The notes under the pieces are model-generated. The model saw only the letters and a list, made by a program, of their open reading frames with translations. It searched no databases and was not told the origin of the DNA. The position numbers were made by a program, and so were the translations under genes. A stretch of 24,000 nt of DNA, taken from positions 61,520 to 85,519 of the forward strand of contig NZ_JBHXWI010000006.1 in assembly GCF_042671975.1 (NCBI RefSeq). Reading direction: 5' to 3'. This stretch comes from Rhodococcus sp. NPDC127593. GTDB lineage: Bacteria > Actinomycetota > Actinomycetes > Mycobacteriales > Mycobacteriaceae. Positions 1-15,979 of this stretch are shown here, piece by piece; the stretch's first letter is position 1; each line of letters starts with the position of its first letter.

Positions 1-263
1 TGGGGCACCTGGGCCTGCCCCTCGACACAGTGCCGCTCGCCCACGCCCTCGCACCGTATTCGCGTCTCATCCTCGACGTCCTGCACGGCGACCGGTCTCT
101 GTTCACGCGCCCCGACGGCTTGGCGCACGTCTGGACCGTCGCCGACGCGCTGCTGCGTGACCCTCCCCCGGCCAAGCCGTACCCCGCAGGATCCATGGGA
201 CCGCCGGAGGCAGAAGACCTCGCCTCCCCCTGTGGGTGGCTGGTCACCGACTCTCCGAAATGA
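1..263 (+). CDS. zwf: glucose-6-phosphate dehydrogenase, C-terminal fragment (5' part lies outside the window)
   Basis: The frame is open from the window edge to TGA 261-263. The tail YSRLILDVLHGDRSLFTRPDGLAHVW...KPYPAGSMGPPEAEDL follows the conserved Zwf C-terminus pattern (ERLLLDV..GD..LF.R.DE..W...Y..GSWGP). The GTG at 30 in the ORF track is only the first start-like codon in frame. Confidence 0.75.
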   Translation, partial: GHLGLPLDTVPLAHALAPYSRLILDVLHGDRSLFTRPDGLAHVWTVADALLRDPPPAKPYPAGSMGPPEAEDLASPCGWLVTDSPK

Positions 264-289: not shown

Positions 290-535
290 ATGGACGACCA
301 CGAGATCGCCGATCGAATTCAAGCCCTCGTCGAGCAGGAGCACGAACTGCGGACACAGTTGCAGGAGGAGGGCCTGGCACCGCAGGAAGAACAGGCCCGG
401 CTGCGGGCGCTGGAAACCTCGCTCGATCAGTGTTGGGACCTCCTGCGGCGCAGACGCGCCCGCCTCCACGCCGGCGAGGATCCCGACGACGCCACGGTGC
501 GCCCCGAAGCCGAGGTCGAGGGGTACCTGCAGTAG
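290..535 (+). CDS. DUF2630-like small coiled-coil protein
   Basis: 81-aa ORF with RBS GAGGAA 5 nt upstream of ATG 290. The acidic helical N-half and the ...LDQCWDLLRRRRA...EVEGYLQ end match my recollection of the actinobacterial DUF2630 family. Confidence 0.65.
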   Translation: MDDHEIADRIQALVEQEHELRTQLQEEGLAPQEEQARLRALETSLDQCWDLLRRRRARLHAGEDPDDATVRPEAEVEGYLQ

Positions 536-542
536 TACCCGG

Positions 543-1556
543 CTACTCCGTCGCCGATTCGAGGGTGTCCGCCCTCGCCGGGGCGGGACTGGTCTTGCGG
601 AAGTCCTCGTACGCGTCGGCGAGATCCAGCACCCATCGGCGCGGCGACATGCCCTGGGGCGGCGCGATCCACTCGGTGTCGAGGACGTCCGAGGCGACCG
701 GGTCGTCGATCCAGCGGGCGAGAATCCCCGCGCGTTCGGCGGTCGATTCCGGAAGATCCTGTTCGTCCGTGTCGAGCATGCCCGCGCCCGCCTGCAGGTA
801 CAGCGCATCCATGATGTGCGCAACCGCGTCGGAGGCGCGGAGAACGGTTGTGCTCCCCTTGCCGTCGCCCTCGACCACCTCGGGGAACCGTGCTACGAGC
901 ACCGAATGCACAGTGTTCATGCGGCGCAGGTCCTGCCGTGCGCGCAGCCACGTCTCGACGAGCACCCAGACGGTGCCGACCGACACGACCACGGCCGCGA
1001 CGGTGTATGCCGACGAGGAGCCGACGGCCCATGTCTCCCCCGGCACCTCACGCACCAGTCCTACGACAGCCGCCGCCAGGACGATCGCCGATCCGACGAC
1101 GATCAGTGAGATTCCGCGGCCGAGCGGTGTCCACGCGACGTGCCGGACCCCGGTCACGACCACCGCGGCCAGCGCGATCACGATGAACACCAGCGCCGGA
1201 ACGGGATACCCACCGGCAAGCCCGATTCCGAGCACGACGGCCACGGTGTAGACGACCACGGCGACAGCGCGCAGCGCAGGACGCGGGAGTATCGGCCACA
1301 CGGAGATCGCGCCGACCGCGCTCGCGGCGGCGAACAGCGTCCACGCCAGTTCGAGGACGATCTCCGACAGCCCGACAGCCGGGGCCACCGTGTCGAGACG
1401 CCCGGCGACGTCCGGAACGGCCAACGTGGAGGCGAGGGCCGCGCTGGACACCGCCACCACCATCGCCACGCGCAGCGGCGTCGGCTGACGCGCGGCGACC
1501 CGGCCGATCCGGGCACCCGCGGCAGTCCAGACGACGAGAGAAACCAGCCAGCCCAT
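543..1556 (-). CDS. polytopic membrane protein with a soluble acidic C-terminal domain of about 110 aa (gene Z; resembles the MAB_1171c/DUF6545-type putative transporter family)
   Basis: Start chosen at ATG 1556 (MGWLVSLVVW...), which overlaps the upstream stop as TGATG. The longer 372-aa track ORF only adds an Arg-rich non-coding-looking extension. There are about 8-9 hydrophobic spans, followed by RARQDLRRMNTVHSVL...DLADAYEDFRK. The family name is recollection, not a search result. Confidence 0.7.
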   Translation of the reverse strand: MGWLVSLVVWTAAGARIGRVAARQPTPLRVAMVVAVSSAALASTLAVPDVAGRLDTVAPAVGLSEIVLELAWTLFAAASAVGAISVWPILPRPALRAVAVVVYTVAVVLGIGLAGGYPVPALVFIVIALAAVVVTGVRHVAWTPLGRGISLIVVGSAIVLAAAVVGLVREVPGETWAVGSSSAYTVAAVVVSVGTVWVLVETWLRARQDLRRMNTVHSVLVARFPEVVEGDGKGSTTVLRASDAVAHIMDALYLQAGAGMLDTDEQDLPESTAERAGILARWIDDPVASDVLDTEWIAPPQGMSPRRWVLDLADAYEDFRKTSPAPARADTLESATE

Positions 1557-2056
1557 CAGCCGATCGCCTCGTCGTAGCGGAGCACGGACACGGGAGTCCC
1601 GCGCCCTCGCATCGTGTTCAACCGGATGAGCAGCATCGACGCGAACGTCTCGGCCTCCCACTCGGCCACCTCGTCGGACGGCTGCTCGTCTTCCCGCCGT
1701 CGCGACCGCTGACTGAGCATGTAGGCGATCAGATCGTCGCCGGCTTCGAGCGTCGCGGCGACGATCTCGGCTCCTTCGTGCCGAAACACGATGTGACCCA
1801 GCTCATGCGCAAGCGTGCGGTCGAGGTCCGGCAGGCCCGGGGCCAGCACGATCACGTCCCGGTCCGGGTACGCGCGTCTCTGGCCGCACACACCGGGCGC
1901 CATCGATGTCGTGAAATCGAGTTCGATGGGACGCTGCCGTTCGCGGGCCACCGCGTCCACCACGTGCCGGAGTGACACTACTTCGGCACGGGCCGCCGCG
2001 TCACACACCGCGTCCACGGCTGCCGCGACCCGGCGATGAGATCTGTTCGCCCCCAC
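1556..2056 (-). CDS. ImmA/IrrE-type (COG2856, Peptidase_M78-like) zinc metallopeptidase, 166 aa (gene Y)
   Basis: GTG 2056 lies 8 nt after GGAGGG and 2 nt after the stop of the upstream gene. It carries the HExxH block AHELGHIVFRH and the downstream EWEAETFASMLL block typical of ImmA/IrrE peptidases. No signal peptide or TM segment is present. The rest of the 479-aa track ORF (1556..2995) is an out-of-frame reading of gene X. Confidence 0.7.
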   Translation of the reverse strand: MGANRSHRRVAAAVDAVCDAAARAEVVSLRHVVDAVARERQRPIELDFTTSMAPGVCGQRRAYPDRDVIVLAPGLPDLDRTLAHELGHIVFRHEGAEIVAATLEAGDDLIAYMLSQRSRRREDEQPSDEVAEWEAETFASMLLIRLNTMRGRGTPVSVLRYDEAIG

Positions 2057-2058
2057 GA

Positions 2059-2973
2059 CTACATCCCTCCACTCGAAGCGGACGGGAAGAATTCCGCCCG
2101 CGCGGCCGCGATGCGCGCCTGTTGTGCGCGAGCACCCTTGAAGGTCAGCGCACCCACCCCGCCGGCGCAGCACAGCAGCACGCCGACGCCACCGAGAACG
2201 GTGATCGCAGGCAACGGCTCGCTGTGGACCACGGGAACCATTCCCGGCGGCGCAGCGGCCGGATCGCCCTGGGCCGGTGCCTCCGCGGCGGACGACGGTC
2301 CGTCGCTGCTCGGTGTCTCCCCGGCAGGCCGATCCTCGGGTGCGGAACCCGCCGGACCGCTGACCCCCGGAGCTGCCGCGGCGGCGCCGGAACCGGAACC
2401 TCCGGCCGCCGCTCCCCCGGACGCCGGGGGTGCGGCAGGGCCCTCGGAGCCCGGGGCGGCAACAGCGTCGGAACCCGAGTCGTCTCCGGAACCGTCGTCG
2501 CCGGGGAAGTCGGGGCGCACGACCTTCGGTTCCCCCGCCGGCGGCAGCTGGATCGGGGGCGGAGGCGCAACCACGACACGTGATGTCGAAGGAGTCGACG
2601 TCTTCGTGGGTTCGGCAGTCCCGGACGGTTCGGTGGTCCCGGACGGTTCGGTGGTCTCGGACGGTTCGGTGGTCTCGGACGGTTCGGTGGTCTCGGACGG
2701 TTCGGTGGTCTCGCTGGGTTCCCGTGTCTCGCTGGGTTCTCCGCCACCGCAGCCGCGGCGACTCTCGCACGGCGGATGAGGATCCTGTGGCTTGCCGCCG
2801 CCGGCAGACTCCGAGGAAGCGTCGTCGCATCGACTGCTGGCGCAGTCGTGATACTGGGGATCGGCGGAGGCGTCGGACGGGAACACCGAGACGGTGACCC
2901 AGCCGAGTCCGGACAAGAAGGCCAGCGCCAGTCCGACCATGGTCAGCCTTCGAACAACACGACGCGCGCTCAC
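2059..2973 (-). CDS. secreted or membrane-anchored low-complexity repeat protein (gene X): signal/TM, two Cys pairs, EPSETT repeats, Pro/Gly/Ala/Ser linker, C-terminal TM and a basic tail
   Basis: 304-aa ORF starting at GTG 2973 (MSARRVVRRLTMVGLALAFLSGLGWVTVSVFPSDASA). An alternative ATG at 2940 has a GAAGG RBS. Motifs include CASSRC and CESRRGC, (EPSETT)n, and a C-terminal TM ITVLGGVGVLLCCAGGVGALTF followed by KGARAQQAR. The antisense + ORF 2036..2779 shares wobble positions, so GC3 cannot decide between frames. Operon context, RBS placement and membrane topology favour the minus frame. Confidence 0.6.
   Translation of the reverse strand: MSARRVVRRLTMVGLALAFLSGLGWVTVSVFPSDASADPQYHDCASSRCDDASSESAGGGKPQDPHPPCESRRGCGGGEPSETREPSETTEPSETTEPSETTEPSETTEPSGTTEPSGTAEPTKTSTPSTSRVVVAPPPPIQLPPAGEPKVVRPDFPGDDGSGDDSGSDAVAAPGSEGPAAPPASGGAAAGGSGSGAAAAAPGVSGPAGSAPEDRPAGETPSSDGPSSAAEAPAQGDPAAAPPGMVPVVHSEPLPAITVLGGVGVLLCCAGGVGALTFKGARAQQARIAAARAEFFPSASSGGM
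2606..2748 (-). repeat. 18-bp in-frame tandem repeat (coding-strand unit GAGACCACCGAACCGTCC = ETTEPS)
   Basis: Five near-perfect 18-bp units lie at 2623-2712: four are identical and the first differs at one base. One degenerate unit flanks them on the left and two on the right. All lie inside gene X. Confidence 0.9.
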
Positions 2974-3516: not shown

Positions 3517-3592
3517 TGGTGGAGCTGAGGGGAATCGAACCCCTGACCTCTTCGATGCGAACGAAGCGCGCTACCAACTGCGCCACAGCCCC
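3517..3592 (-). tRNA. tRNA-Ala (anticodon CGC), CCA encoded
   Basis: The reverse complement reads GGGGCTGTGGCGCAGTTGGTAGCGCGCTTCGTTCGCATCGAAGAGGTCAGGGGTTCGATTCCCCTCAGCTCCACCA. It folds as a cloverleaf with a G3:U70 alanine identity pair, anticodon loop TTCGCAT and T-loop GGTTCGATTCC. Confidence 0.92.
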
Positions 3593-9556: not shown

Positions 9557-10024
9557 ATGTTCAAGGGATTCAAGGACTTCCTGCTCCGGGGGAACGTCCT
9601 CGACCTCGCCGTCGCGGTCGTAGTCGGAGCCGCGTTCACCGCCATCGTCACAGCGTTCACCAACAACGTCATCAATCCGCTGATCGCCGTTGCGGGCGGC
9701 GCCAACGATCTGGGCTGGGGTTACCAGATTATCGCCGACAACCCGGCCACCTTCATCAACATCGGCGCCGTCATCACGGCTGTGATCAACTTCGTGATCG
9801 TCGCAGCGGTCGTGTACTTCATTCTCATCGTCCCGGCCAACGCCGCGAAGAAGCGGTTCATCACCGAGCCGGCCGACAAGAAGGCCAGTGAGGCGGACCT
9901 GCTGATCCAGATCCGCGACATCCTCGAGGCCAGCCTCCAAACCGGCGGGGCGGCAGCCAGTTCCGACGGTGCGCACGCCATGCCCGCCGAGAAGGCGGCG
10001 AACCTCGACAAGACGCGCGAATAG
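9557..10024 (+). CDS. mscL: large-conductance mechanosensitive channel
   Basis: ATG 9557 follows GAGGAG. The N-terminus MFKGFKDFLLRGNVLDLAVAVVVGAAFTAIVTAFTNNVINPLIA is canonical MscL. Confidence 0.9.
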   Translation: MFKGFKDFLLRGNVLDLAVAVVVGAAFTAIVTAFTNNVINPLIAVAGGANDLGWGYQIIADNPATFINIGAVITAVINFVIVAAVVYFILIVPANAAKKRFITEPADKKASEADLLIQIRDILEASLQTGGAAASSDGAHAMPAEKAANLDKTRE

Positions 10025-10092: not shown

Positions 10093-10770
10093 TCAGCCGA
10101 TGCTGAAGGGCTGTCCCCACAGGGTGACGGTGCTGCTCACGTTGTCCGTCTCGACGGACACGTTCACGTACGACCGTGCCTGCGCGTAACCGGCGCAGCC
10201 GTTCACGCCGAGGGTCGAGTCGGCCCAGGTGACCGAACCGTCGGTACCCTCGAAGCTGTTGTATGCCGAGTGCGACTCTCCGCCGTAGGCGTCGGCCGAC
10301 TCGAGGTCGAGGATGTCGACGCTGACGGCCTCACCGGGGCCGAGGGTGATACCCGCGCTCGTGCCGCCGTCGACAGGAACCGAAACGGTACCGTCAGCAT
10401 TCACCACCGGAGTCGAGCCGGCTTCACCGCCTGCCTCCGCACCGAAGTCGACCTGGCAGGCCAGGACGTAACCCGGCTGGATGTCGGCACCGGTCGCTCC
10501 GGCGCCGTCCAGGTGGACGGAGGCCTTGCCGTTGACCCAGACGTTACGGTGCAACGGAGTCGAACCCATCGACGGCGAAACGTTCGCGCTCTCATCGGTC
10601 AGGTTCACCGTCACCACGGTGCCGTCAGCCAACGTCTGCGTGATCGAACCACCAGGCAGCGGAATGAACGTGTCGGCGCTCGCCGCACCGACGGAAAAGA
10701 AGCCCATGGTCGCGGCAGCAGCGGCACCGACCGCGGCCAGACGCACACCGTTCTTACGGTTGATGATCAT
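10093..10770 (-). CDS. MspA-family porin, paralog A1 (acidic variant)
   Basis: ATG 10770 follows GAGAGGGGAA. The signal peptide is MIINRKNGVRLAAVGAAAAATMGFFSVGAASA|DTFIPLPGG. The mature part is about 193 aa and ends TLWGQPFSIG (compare the MspA end ...TYGEPWNMN). The track's 315-aa version would overlap the upstream gene. Confidence 0.8.
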   Translation of the reverse strand: MIINRKNGVRLAAVGAAAAATMGFFSVGAASADTFIPLPGGSITQTLADGTVVTVNLTDESANVSPSMGSTPLHRNVWVNGKASVHLDGAGATGADIQPGYVLACQVDFGAEAGGEAGSTPVVNADGTVSVPVDGGTSAGITLGPGEAVSVDILDLESADAYGGESHSAYNSFEGTDGSVTWADSTLGVNGCAGYAQARSYVNVSVETDNVSSTVTLWGQPFSIG

Positions 10771-11544
10771 TGTTCCCCTCTCAGGGATAGAAACCTCGCG
10801 CACGCGAGAAAGTGGGTGGGAAGAACTGCGAAAGAGACCGAAATCAGCCGATGCTGAACGGCGCACCGTACAGAACGGTCTTCGAGTAGTCGTTGCCCAC
10901 GATCTCCACGACCGAGTACGAACGAGCCTGCGCGAATCCACCGCACTTCTGCACCTGCAGCTCCGCATCCTGGTACTGCAGCGCGTACACGCCGTCCTTC
11001 TTGATGTCCTTGCCACCCAACGGCACGTACTTGATCTCACCCGAAGCCAACGGAACCGTCAGACCCGCACTCGCCGACAACGAATCGAGACCCAGACTGA
11101 ACGACGGGTTCGCCGACAGACCGGTGATATCCACCTGGCAACCCACGATGTACCCGGTCGACACCCGCGAAACACCATGCGTCGTCGACGCATTCGTACC
11201 GTTGTAGGTACCCGCATTGTTCGTCGTCGAGTTCGCGTCCGGAACGTCGGTGACGTCCTTGATGCCCTTGACATCGGCAACGACGGTGCCCGACACCCAG
11301 GCCACACGACCGACGCCATTGGCAGCCAGCGACGGCGACGACAGAGCGCTCTCCGCAGTACGCGTCAACGTCACATTCGGACCGGCCTTCGAACCATCAG
11401 GCAGCGGGATGAAAGTATCCGCGCTCGCCGCACCAGTGGACATCAAACCGAGTGCAACAGCCGCAGCAGCACCCAGGCCTGCAATACGGGCGCCACGGCG
11501 CAGGCCGGACTTGCGGTTCTCGCTCATTCGTTCCCCTCATCAGG
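10516..11544. repeat. direct repeat copy 1 (1,029 bp, perfect)
   Basis: A block-by-block comparison with 12196-13224 found no mismatch. It covers the first 255 nt of gene A, the A-B spacer, all of gene B and 17 nt upstream of B. Confidence 0.9.
10844..11527 (-). CDS. MspA-family porin, paralog B1
   Basis: 227 aa. RBS GAGGGGAA precedes the start. The signal peptide is MSENRKSGLRRGARIAGLGAAAAVALGLMSTGAASA|DTFIPLPDG, and the protein ends VLYGAPFSIG. Confidence 0.8.
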   Translation of the reverse strand: MSENRKSGLRRGARIAGLGAAAAVALGLMSTGAASADTFIPLPDGSKAGPNVTLTRTAESALSSPSLAANGVGRVAWVSGTVVADVKGIKDVTDVPDANSTTNNAGTYNGTNASTTHGVSRVSTGYIVGCQVDITGLSANPSFSLGLDSLSASAGLTVPLASGEIKYVPLGGKDIKKDGVYALQYQDAELQVQKCGGFAQARSYSVVEIVGNDYSKTVLYGAPFSIG

Positions 11545-11772: not shown

Positions 11773-12450
11773 TCAGCCGATGCTGAAGGGCTGTCCCCAC
11801 AGGGTGACCGTGCTGCTGACGTTGTCGGTGCTGACGGCAACCTTGACGTAGCTGCGCGCCTGGGCGTAGCCGGCGCAACCGCTCACTCCGAGGGTCGAGT
11901 CGGCCCAGGTGACCGAACCGGTCTTGCCCGTGAACTTGTTGGCACCGGAGTGCGACTCGGCGCCGTAGGCGTCCTTCTTCTCGAGGTCGAGAATCGTGAC
12001 GTTCTTCGCCTGGCCGGGGCCGAGGGTGATTCCGGCGCCGGTGGCACCCGTGACCGGAATAGAGACGGTGCCGTCGTCGGCGACGGACGGCGTCGAGCCC
12101 GTCTTGCCGTTGGCGCTGGCACCGAAGTCGACCTGGCAGGCCAGGACGTAACCCGGGGTGATCGAGGCTCCCTTGGCTCCGGCGCCGTCCAGCGTGACGG
12201 AGGCCTTGCCGTTGACCCAGACGTTACGGTGCAACGGAGTCGAACCCATCGACGGCGAAACGTTCGCGCTCTCATCGGTCAGGTTCACCGTCACCACGGT
12301 GCCGTCAGCCAACGTCTGCGTGATCGAACCACCAGGCAGCGGAATGAACGTGTCGGCGCTCGCCGCACCGACGGAAAAGAAGCCCATGGTCGCGGCAGCA
12401 GCGGCACCGACCGCGGCCAGACGCACACCGTTCTTACGGTTGATGATCAT
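11773..12450 (-). CDS. MspA-family porin, paralog A2 (near-neutral variant)
   Basis: Same start context and the same first 84 residues as A1. The C-terminal 141 residues differ at 32 positions by hand alignment. Confidence 0.8.
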   Translation of the reverse strand: MIINRKNGVRLAAVGAAAAATMGFFSVGAASADTFIPLPGGSITQTLADGTVVTVNLTDESANVSPSMGSTPLHRNVWVNGKASVTLDGAGAKGASITPGYVLACQVDFGASANGKTGSTPSVADDGTVSIPVTGATGAGITLGPGQAKNVTILDLEKKDAYGAESHSGANKFTGKTGSVTWADSTLGVSGCAGYAQARSYVKVAVSTDNVSSTVTLWGQPFSIG

Positions 12451-14432: not shown

Positions 14433-15979
14433 CAGCGGCCACCCTGTTCGGCCGTTCCGAGCGTGACGTCGACGGTCTTGGTATTGGATCCGTTCCCGTC
14501 GGTGTAGGTGATCGACACATTGTCTCCCGGTGCGTGTGAACGGATGGCGGCGATGAGCGCGTCGCCACTGGTGATGACGCGGTCGTCGACCTCGGTGATC
14601 ACCGACCCCTTCGGAATACCCGCCTTCTCCGCCGGGCTGCCCGCCGTGACCTCGACGACGGTTGCACCGTTGGCGGCGTCCTGCGACGGGACCTGGATCC
14701 CGATGACGGCCTGGGTGGCCTTGCCTGTCTTGACCAGCTCGTCCGCGATGCGCCGGGCCTGGTCGACCGGGATCGCGAAGCCGAGTCCGATGGAGCCGCT
14801 CTGCTCGCCGGCACCGGAACCGCCGATGCTCGCGATGGCGGTGTTGATGCCGATCAGCTGGCCGTCCATGTTGACGAGGGCGCCGCCGGAGTTGCCCGGG
14901 TTGATCGCCGCATCGGTCTGGAGGGCGTCGATGACGGTGTTCTGGTTGCCGGACTCGCCGCTGGTGGACACCGGGCGATTGAGCGCCGAGATGATGCCCT
15001 CGGTGACGGTCCCGGCCAGGCCGAGGGGCGACCCGATCGCCACGACCTGCTGTCCGACCTGCACGTTGCCGGACGTTCCCAGCTCGATCGGAGTGAGGTC
15101 GGTCTTGCCGTCCACCTTGATGACCGCGAGATCGGACACCGGGTCGGCGCCGACCAGCTTGGCGTCCGCCGTGCTGCCGTCCGAGAAGGCGACCGTCAGC
15201 TTGCCGCCCTTTGCTGCCGCGCCTGCCACGTGATTGTTGGTGAGGATCATGCCGTCGGACGAGATGACGATGCCGGATCCTTCTCCACCGGAACCGCCTG
15301 CCGTCGCCACCTCGATCTGGACGACGCTCGGGACCACCTTGTTCGCGACCGCCTGCACCGAACCTGCCGGTGCATTCGCGGCCGGGGTCGCGGTGTTGTT
15401 CTTGGGGGCGTCGAGGGAGTTGGTCACCGCGGCGCCGCTGCCGTTCCGGTCGGTTGCCAGGGAGCCCACGACGCCACCGATGCCACCGCTCACGAGAGCG
15501 AGCGCCACAGCGCCCACCACGATGGCGGTTCGGGCGGGACGCTTGGTCGCGGTCGCCGTCGATCCCTCCCCGGCCTGTCCGGGGCCCTGAAGGCCGGGGA
15601 ACGGGCCCTGAGGCGCCCCGTGCTGCCCGACCCCGTGCTGGGCACCCGGGTGTCCCGGAGCGCCGTGCTGGGCACCCGGGTGTCCCGGAGCGCCGTGCTG
15701 GGCACCCGGGTGTCCCGGAGCGCCGTGCTGAGGCTGCCCGAACTGCTGGGCGGGCTGCTGCGGCGCACCGTACGGATTGCCCTGGGGGTACCCGGGCGCG
15801 CCGTAGGCCTGCTGACCCATCGGACCGCCCGCGGGGTTCTGCGGAGTGGCCGGAAACTGCTCGGTCGGGTGGTAACCCGGCGTCGACTGCGGGTGGGCAG
15901 GCTGTTCGGGCCGCGCGCCCTGGTCGCCACCGGCATTGTCGCGGCTGTTGCCGTCGTGACTGTCTCGATCTTCGGTCAT
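14432..15979 (-). CDS. pepD: HtrA/PepD-type S1C serine protease with C-terminal PDZ domain
   Basis: 515 aa. A Pro/Gln/Gly-rich N-terminus and one TM are followed by ...LTNNHV..., DLAVIKV and INPGNSGGALVN (catalytic Ser), then a PDZ domain. It follows mprAB, as pepD does in mycobacteria. Confidence 0.85.
   Translation of the reverse strand: MTEDRDSHDGNSRDNAGGDQGARPEQPAHPQSTPGYHPTEQFPATPQNPAGGPMGQQAYGAPGYPQGNPYGAPQQPAQQFGQPQHGAPGHPGAQHGAPGHPGAQHGAPGHPGAQHGVGQHGAPQGPFPGLQGPGQAGEGSTATATKRPARTAIVVGAVALALVSGGIGGVVGSLATDRNGSGAAVTNSLDAPKNNTATPAANAPAGSVQAVANKVVPSVVQIEVATAGGSGGEGSGIVISSDGMILTNNHVAGAAAKGGKLTVAFSDGSTADAKLVGADPVSDLAVIKVDGKTDLTPIELGTSGNVQVGQQVVAIGSPLGLAGTVTEGIISALNRPVSTSGESGNQNTVIDALQTDAAINPGNSGGALVNMDGQLIGINTAIASIGGSGAGEQSGSIGLGFAIPVDQARRIADELVKTGKATQAVIGIQVPSQDAANGATVVEVTAGSPAEKAGIPKGSVITEVDDRVITSGDALIAAIRSHAPGDNVSITYTDGNGSNTKTVDVTLGTAEQGGR
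15631..15730 (-). repeat. 30-bp in-frame tandem repeat, about 3.3 copies (encodes GAPGHPGAQH repeats)
   Basis: 15661-15690 equals 15691-15720. 15631-15660 differs at one base, and a partial copy covers 15721-15730. All lie inside the disordered N-terminus of pepD. Confidence 0.85.

Follow-up and report, generated by a model that had tools for sequence, protein, structure and literature searches.

The closest described relatives of the locus reported here are pairs made of a metallopeptidase of the M78 (COG2856) type and a helix-turn-helix (HTH) regulator of the XRE family. To our knowledge, every M78-XRE neighbour pair characterised so far is a protease-substrate pair, as in ImmA/ImmR, IrrE/DdrO and CapP/CapH. 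Pairs of XRE and COG2856 genes have also been proposed as toxin-antitoxin (TA)-like systems, reportedly including those of the Brucella ZnMP/HTH-Xre papers. In M. tuberculosis, EspR (Rv3849) has a key part in regulating ESX-1-dependent virulence, and we know of no protease partner described for it. The DNA analysed here is a stretch of 24,000 nucleotides from Rhodococcus sp. NPDC127593, hereafter the window, in which an M78 peptidase gene (Y) is packed between two genes for membrane proteins (X and Z). Comparison with other loci leaves us highly confident that Y, Z and an EspR-family regulator form a real module. The M78-protease/XRE-repressor theme as such is known; a membrane-coupled version with an EspR-family regulator was not found described in the searchable literature, and searches on EspR and proteases and on MAB_1171c/DUF6545 (the family of the remote homologues of Z) found no description of the Y-Z-EspR linkage.

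The window has a high-GC, actinobacterial base composition (~64-71%) and is an exact match to contig JBHXVS010000022 of assembly GCA_042671735.1. The trio reads as follows:

2059-2973, reverse strand: X, 304 aa, type-I bitopic membrane protein with a conserved cytoplasmic tail
1556-2056, reverse strand: Y, 166 aa, GTG start, cytoplasmic zinc metallopeptidase of the ImmA/IrrE type (Peptidase_M78/COG2856)
543-1556, reverse strand: Z, 337 aa, ATG start, membrane protein

X stops at TAG 2061-2059 and the GTG of Y follows at 2056, 2 nt past this stop, its ribosome binding site (GGAGGG, 8 nt upstream of the GTG) lying within the end of X; the stop of Y and the start of Z overlap as TGATG, with 1 nt in common. 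All that an initial annotation of the window had stated about the three genes at the sequence level (packing, overlaps, ribosome binding site, motifs and architecture of X) was reproduced. A survey of one genome per GTDB species yielded 80 loci with Y orthologues, more loci being added by exact-protein look-ups, and gene order was read by tblastn with the proteins of the window. Y and Z were adjacent in 88 of 88 loci, from Rhodococcus, Nocardia, Antrihabitans, Aldersonia, Skermania, Gordonia and metagenomes. Their stop and start codons overlapped in 66 of 84 (the overlap being 4 nt in 58 loci and 1 nt in the other 8), and the gap between X and Y was 17 nt or less in 82 of 83. The tight packing of X, Y and Z is not a matter of chance.

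The initial annotation had presented Y as an orphan peptidase without an XRE partner. Within the window no HTH gene was indeed found near the trio, tblastn with EspR giving no match there. On the source contig, a 138-aa HTH_3 protein was first found 2.8 kb from Z, and an EspR-family XRE gene of about 138 aa, referred to below as espR, stood beside Y-Z in 83 of 83 loci of sufficient extent; the remaining five of the 88, whose contigs end within 317 nt after Z, were kept outside this count. The partner aligns with EspR of M. tuberculosis (PDB 3qf3) at E 3.2e-37 over its full length, residues 3-129 onto 5-131, that is, over both the HTH and the C-terminal dimerisation domain, and shows about 51% identity to the M. 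tuberculosis and M. kansasii loci by tblastn. Orthologues beside Y-Z were 74-100% identical across genera, most Nocardia copies at about 91%. The proposal of an uncharacterised membrane-linked proteolytic module therefore stood in that a conserved module exists; its orphan status did not, being refuted by what the annotation itself had named as decisive, an XRE gene consistently encoded beside orthologues and merely missing here. EspR-family paralogues are common, some Nocardia and Skermania genomes having two to three copies.

In the genome of the window, G6PD and DUF2630 genes have been inserted between Z and espR. Position 1 of the window corresponds to coordinate 12056 of locus L001, the locus of the window's strain, and espR lies 1,290-1,706 nt past the window edge, displaced by about 1.8 kb by the G6PD/DUF2630 segment; it was invisible to the initial annotation because the insertion puts it outside the window. 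Two genes of the segment reach into the window, and a tRNA gene lies on the X side:

3-263, forward strand: 3' end of the G6PD gene
290-535, forward strand: DUF2630 gene
3517-3592, reverse strand: tRNA-Ala(CGC)

Only loci of the R. opacus/jostii/wratislaviensis clade (L001-L006) have G6PD between Z and espR. In three other Rhodococcus loci (L007-L009), the left flank is MoeA-GNAT-SepX as in the window and espR comes directly after Z. The DUF2630 gene converges with Z, their stop codons being only 7 nt apart, and tblastn matched the DUF2630 gene only in the window's strain and in none of L002-L006. Beyond the tRNA, on the X side, lie the divisome gene sepX/glpR, a GNAT gene and moeA.

Across the survey, the block Y-Z-espR was kept while its outer flanks changed. 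R. opacus and its relatives had moeA-GNAT-sepX-tRNA; in the R. fascians group the block lay between GGDEF and DUF1810; Nocardia and Skermania showed genes resembling those of steroid catabolism, Gordonia had CoA-transferase/thiolase genes, and one ENA contig had treH/otsA-type genes. Orientation was convergent, with espR downstream of Z, in 80 of the 83 loci (median gap ~300 nt), the other three being Gordonia loci in which espR>X>Y>Z follow each other on a single strand with short gaps. The prevailing convergence would suit another reading of the linkage, as would the fact that G6PD could be inserted between Z and espR: the association may be regulatory or historical, an inherited order or a control of operon transcription by EspR, with Y and Z serving an unrelated role such as membrane protein quality control or transport. 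We consider this unlikely, given that the adjacency outlasts at least five flanking contexts as well as the reordering in Gordonia.

Paralogous triads on plasmids and metagenomic contigs also bear on this point. Contig L097 (36 kb, metagenomic) has genes for ParB, ParA, a NikA-like and an NlpC/P60 protein and carries P0389, a member of MAB_1171c/DUF6545. Upstream of P0389 lies a 162-aa homologue of Y (hhalign probability 99.8%, E 1e-27) that keeps HELGH and EDEAEAFA, and after P0389 and a PAP2-like gene comes a convergent gene for an EspR-family HTH protein of 145 aa, 47% identical to Rhodococcus EspR and matching the PDB EspR at E 5e-29. Wherever a Rhodococcus plasmid had a Z-like gene (32 of 32 cases), that gene was preceded by a Y-like gene and followed by a convergent EspR-like one, and more triads were found in metagenomes, e.g. 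L113. Since the trio is kept at 25-47% identity on different replicons, it can be regarded as a functional module, and neutral synteny offers no explanation for such paralogues. The linkage is thus more than inherited gene order, because the flanks differ while the block persists and because the trio recurs in diverged paralogues on mobile DNA.

Several other features of the plasmid loci were recorded. In the three Rhodococcus plasmid loci examined (L099-L101), Z overlaps at its end with a gene for a PAP2-family membrane phosphatase, and the EspR-like gene is followed downstream by another convergent regulator, which contains two HTH_3 domains in tandem; of these two additions, L097 has only the PAP2-like gene. 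EspR-family genes are carried by plasmids of Streptomyces, Corynebacterium, Mycolicibacterium/Mycobacterium, Pseudonocardia, Dietzia and Tsukamurella as well, most of these plasmids being without a detectable Y-type protease.

Analysis of Y agreed with the family assignment of the initial annotation. It scored above the curated threshold of Pfam Peptidase_M78 (PF06114; 29.8 bits for a cut-off of 22, E 5.6e-7), with HELGH at residue 84 and EAETFASMLL at residue 134. Its homologues (n=133) all came from Nocardiaceae/Gordonia-type taxa and all measured 150-196 aa, the closest relatives in named taxa being those of Rhodococcus pseudokoreensis, opacus, jostii and wratislaviensis. Residues H84, E85, H88, H93, E132, E134, E136 and F138 were invariant among 54 orthologues, and all except E134 remained so after the plasmid paralogues had been added to the alignment, so that the retention of HExxH expected earlier was confirmed. 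Judged by its sequence, Y is an M78 (ImmA/IrrE-type) metallopeptidase whose metal-binding and catalytic motifs are intact. Its AF2 model (pLDDT 82, pTM 0.76) gave, as top PDB matches in Foldseek, Deinococcus PprI/IrrE (8sln) and an M78-containing regulator of M. tuberculosis (6cyy), the similarity being weak (TM ~0.42; E 3e-3 for IrrE).

The proteolytic family of Y and the plasmid location of many triads raise the question of mobile or defence cargo, or of a TA-like system. Triads sit in plasmid backbones beside ParA/ParB, NikA-like and NlpC/P60 genes, PADLOC weakly matched Y with CapP/RmrA and EspR with CapH, a truncated Y-like gene occurs in an M. abscessus prophage, and a TA-like role has been put forward in the literature for XRE-COG2856 pairs in general. 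Against this, the chromosomal block is vertically conserved across genera, with an EspR identity (74-100%) atypical of such cargo, no integrase or mobile-element genes flank the block in the window, and the PADLOC scores hold at the level of families only. Such a role is in our opinion improbable. Membership in a known defence system was rejected, nothing beyond these weak family-level matches having been obtained. The prophage gene is gene 99 of Mycobacterium phage prophiT36-1 (L102), 36.6% identical to Y over 62% of its length; it adjoins three tyrosine integrase genes, and no Z-like or EspR-like gene is annotated nearby. A phage origin of the module was likewise rejected, this being a single partial match, to a truncated metallopeptidase, without a Z or EspR-like neighbour.

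For Z, structure prediction by AF2, with representative orthologues as input, gave a model with seven transmembrane (TM) helices (pLDDT 91.6, pTM 0.83). Following the positive-inside rule, its N-terminus would lie outside and its C-terminus inside, the last helix extending into a cytoplasmic domain that is helical and acidic, with 23 acidic residues against 9 basic ones. Conserved residues cluster in the cytoplasmic loops and in this C-domain; they comprise the AxGxRxGR loop after TM1, W..LGRG before TM6, RFPEV, D250/Y253 and W308/V309, and the orthologue alignment contains no conserved polar intramembrane residues. No Pfam match was obtained for Z, DUF6545 (PF20182) included, and against NCBIfam MAB_1171c_fam (NF042915) it reached 20.9 bits for a cut-off of 100, over the N-terminal 108 aa only. 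However, the remote homologues retrieved with phmmer (E 1e-14 to 1e-6, 25-31% identity) are MAB_1171c_fam/DUF6545 members: P0377 and P0389 score 116 and 105 bits with MAB_1171c_fam, both above its cut-off, and P0389 is also above the Pfam cut-off for DUF6545. Z is, on the strength of these profile comparisons, transitively related to bona fide members of MAB_1171c/DUF6545. The profile hits anticipated by the initial annotation were thus obtained for Y with Peptidase_M78; Z stayed below the MAB_1171c_fam cut-off without a DUF6545 match, and X had no Pfam domain.

NCBIfam calls the family of Z "putative transporter", and a transport function would suit the regulatory or historical linkage evoked above. 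So would the drug-susceptibility and biofilm phenotypes of a MAB_1171c transposon mutant (PMC8707978, the only paper found on MAB_1171c). Foldseek returned only generic eukaryotic 7-TM receptor bundles for Z (TM ~0.4, E > 0.01), which were not taken as homology. The transporter label is unsupported, because there is neither a fold match to a transporter nor a set of conserved polar intramembrane residues, and both results speak against that alternative. The data fit a scaffold or sensor that faces the cytoplasm better than they fit a transporter. Pairing with an M78 gene was not established as a general rule for MAB_1171c members, P0377 (L093) having an HsdR-like fragment upstream instead.

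The conservation of X is confined to one end. The N-terminus is signal-peptide-like, with Cys residues at 44/49 and 69/75, and a CC (268/269) lies within the TM segment. Seven EPS(E/G)T repeats are present, the underlying DNA being repetitive as well:

2609-2713, reverse strand: 18-bp tandem repeat, 5.8 copies, 96% matches, encoding the EPSETT repeats of X

Residues 119-255 form a stalk in which P, G, A and S make up 67%, and the C-terminal TM segment is followed by a 28-aa cytoplasmic tail with 4 basic and 1 acidic residues, containing …ARAQQARIAAARAEFF…. Among 68 loci, conservation was limited to the TM segment and the tail (consensus …IGGLIALALAG.GSGAVSFQSASAAQARVDAARAEFF, then 3-9 more residues). 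The ectodomain is a low-complexity stalk with lengths of ~240-720 aa among orthologues, and neither X nor 10 orthologues contained a Pfam domain.

Conservation of the neighbourhood held in full for the Y-Z pair (88/88) and was nearly complete for X, which was found at nearly all chromosomal loci; it broke down for X in Skermania, where a 126-nt gap precedes Y, and in the plasmid triads, where a PAP2-like membrane protein is found instead. X is therefore regarded as accessory and not as a universal substrate, since it is absent from these loci while Y, Z and the EspR-like gene are constant, and the suggestion that Y acts on the X tail is weakened to the same degree. This bears on the reading proposed at first, in which Y has no repressor substrate at all and acts on the X tail or on the Z C-domain, or is merely regulated by them, in a self-contained membrane proteolytic module. 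The tight coupling of X, Y and Z agrees with it, as do the strong conservation of the two cytoplasmic parts, the X tail (…QARIDAARAEFF) and the Z C-domain, and the distance of 1.8 kb to espR in the genome of the window. Set against the loci in which X is missing and the EspR-family gene is always there, and against the established knowledge that all characterised M78-XRE neighbours are protease-substrate pairs, it has in our estimate a small chance of being correct.

X is plausibly the extracytoplasmic input of the module. Its Cys pair often lies directly after the signal peptide, within the N-terminal 30-80 aa (e.g. L086 6269-6994, L079 4850-5887 and L012 4881-5966). In many Nocardia it reads CPGC or CPSC; Gordonia has HHHHCHHHSAC and R. 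rhodnii HSCGHHHHRHGPDC, and X of the window carries both DCASSRC and CESRRGC. In some lineages the pair sits within His runs. This Cys/His motif could be involved in extracytoplasmic metal or redox sensing. In addition, the motif AARAEFF in the X tail (~2059-2142, reverse strand) resembles the segment AAFARFF of EspR (L001 13345-13761, reverse strand), which reads AALANFF in M. tuberculosis. Speculatively, the tail might serve Y as a pseudo-substrate or docking mimic; the motif is short and Ala-rich, and the likeness could be due to chance. Many Nocardia drafts (L019, L023, L031, L034, L042, L051, L054, L058, L063, L066, L073 and L077) break within X, their ends lying ~180-900 nt upstream of Y. 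The repetitive stalk presumably collapses in short-read assemblies, and X is therefore likely to be under-annotated in databases.

Taken as a whole, the module may work as a membrane-gated protease/repressor switch, with EspR as the substrate of Y and with Z, together with X, gating Y. For this full mechanistic statement we judge the chances to be evenly balanced. By analogy with ImmA-ImmR, IrrE-DdrO and CapP-CapH, Y would cleave the EspR-family protein and so switch its regulon. Two considerations make the EspR-family protein the likely substrate: the analogy with characterised M78/XRE neighbour pairs, and its two-domain architecture (N-terminal HTH and C-terminal dimerisation domain), which matches that of their substrates. 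At the membrane, Y would be tethered or gated by Z together with X or PAP2, and control of the protease, as suggested in the initial annotation, is still what X and Z most plausibly do. A cue from the envelope or from outside the cytoplasm could in this way lead to proteolysis of an EspR-family regulator, which would make the module a split functional analogue of BlaR1/BlaI. In the chromosomal version, X would assist Z through its extracytoplasmic Cys/His motif, its disordered stalk and its conserved TM segment and tail.

A number of observations weigh against such a switch. The structural match between Y and IrrE is weak (TM 0.42, E 3e-3), and the extra sensor domain of IrrE is missing from Y. 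Unlike immR with immA, espR converges on the operon in most loci and is not co-transcribed with it, and in the clade of the window the insertion separates the genes without apparent loss. EspR-like genes were found on 72 plasmids and Y-like genes on only about 35, and no M78 gene precedes the MAB_1171c member of the 3.3-kb contig L093. The espR loci of M. tuberculosis and M. kansasii contain neither Y nor Z, their order being sodA-Rv3847-GDT1/Rv3848-espR-DUF6474. Lastly, searches of the literature on EspR and ImmA, M78 or proteolysis yielded no paper that connects EspR with a protease of the M78 type.

The mycobacterial loci imply that EspR-family proteins can work without a Y-type protease, and together with the excess of EspR-like over Y-like genes on plasmids they indicate that pairing with Y is not obligatory for the EspR family; the existence of espR without Y-Z in mycobacteria would also suit a merely regulatory or historical linkage. 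Rv3847 and Rv3848 were rejected as orthologues of Y and Z, Rv3848 belonging to the GDT1 family and the Rv3847-like protein giving an hhalign probability of 0.2% with Y and nothing by tblastn. As a tentative proposal, which we would sooner doubt than assert, EspR-family regulators may ancestrally have been the repressor half of a three-part switch made of an EspR-like HTH protein, a Y-type M78 protease and a MAB_1171c-type 7-TM sensor. Such a switch would run on actinobacterial plasmids and would have been domesticated on the chromosomes of Nocardiaceae and Gordonia, EspR being controlled by membrane-triggered proteolysis and not by transcription alone, and Mycobacterium would secondarily have lost or replaced the protease arm.

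If the proposed switch exists, regulated proteolysis from the membrane would amount to post-translational control of EspR-type regulators, which is testable in Rhodococcus, Nocardia and Gordonia. The linkage itself gives the MAB_1171c/DUF6545 family a first functional context, as a candidate protease-coupled sensor or scaffold and not as a transporter. The ImmA/ImmR paradigm would be extended to a membrane-gated form, found widely on large catabolic plasmids of Rhodococcus, where it may control plasmid functions.

Elsewhere in the window, a perfect 30-bp tandem repeat was noted, together with a group of porin genes and an adjoining mscL gene, the coordinates of the porin and mscL genes being derived from the L001 gene table:

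15633-15730: perfect tandem repeat, 3.3 copies, 100% identity, unit CCGTGCTGGGCACCCGGGTGTCCCGGAGCG, in a region of ~72% GC with strongly negative AT skew
~10093-10770, 10844-11527 and 11773-12056, reverse strand: three MspA-type porin paralogues in tandem
~9557-10024, forward strand: mscL, adjoining the three porin paralogues

Compared with ImmA-ImmR of ICEBs1 (Bacillus subtilis) and with phage-like immunity pairs, the module shares an M78/COG2856 HExxH protease encoded beside an XRE-family HTH regulator (83/83 loci, 32/32 plasmid triads and L097/L113), and its plasmid copies lie in conjugative or mobilisable backbones comparable to control modules of integrative and conjugative elements. It differs by its EspR-family partner, by a mostly convergent orientation (80/83 loci) and by the obligatory 7-TM protein (plus X or PAP2) coupled to the protease. 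A repressor-first order on a single strand, as in the co-transcribed ImmA-ImmR genes, is seen only in the 3 Gordonia loci (espR>X>Y>Z), and the chromosomal version is vertically inherited, housekeeping-like DNA. IrrE/PprI of the Deinococcus IrrE/PprI-DdrO system is the best, though weak, structural match of Y (8sln). IrrE is also an M78 protease; once activated by stress, it cuts an XRE repressor in the C-terminal dimerisation region. It is soluble and has an additional C-terminal GAF-like sensor domain, whereas Y is a single domain of 166 aa that has a membrane partner and an N-terminal helical extension specific to its family.

With the CBASS regulators CapP-CapH, the likeness consists of the weak profile matches of Y and EspR, and, according to a preprint on CapH/CapP (10.1101/2022.04.27.489752), the C-terminal dimerisation domain of CapH, a protease-cleaved repressor, resembles that of EspR. 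Unlike the present module, CapP is activated by single-stranded DNA, controls a defence operon and has no membrane component. The compact two-gene operon of XRE-COG2856 TA-like pairs is not found here either, Z always lying between the two genes and the orientation being convergent. Z itself stands far below the NCBIfam cut-off of the MAB_1171c/DUF6545 family (20.9 vs 100 bits) and lacks a Pfam DUF6545 match. EspR (Rv3849) is the best homologue of the partner gene (~51% identity, full length), with Rv3847, GDT1 (Rv3848) and DUF6474 in place of X-Y-Z at the mycobacterial loci. Finally, BlaR1 is a single fused sensor-protease of family M56 without homology to X, Y or Z, and the comparison with BlaR1/BlaI and MecR1/MecI is one of function only: in these systems a membrane sensor leads to zinc-protease-dependent cleavage of a cytoplasmic repressor.

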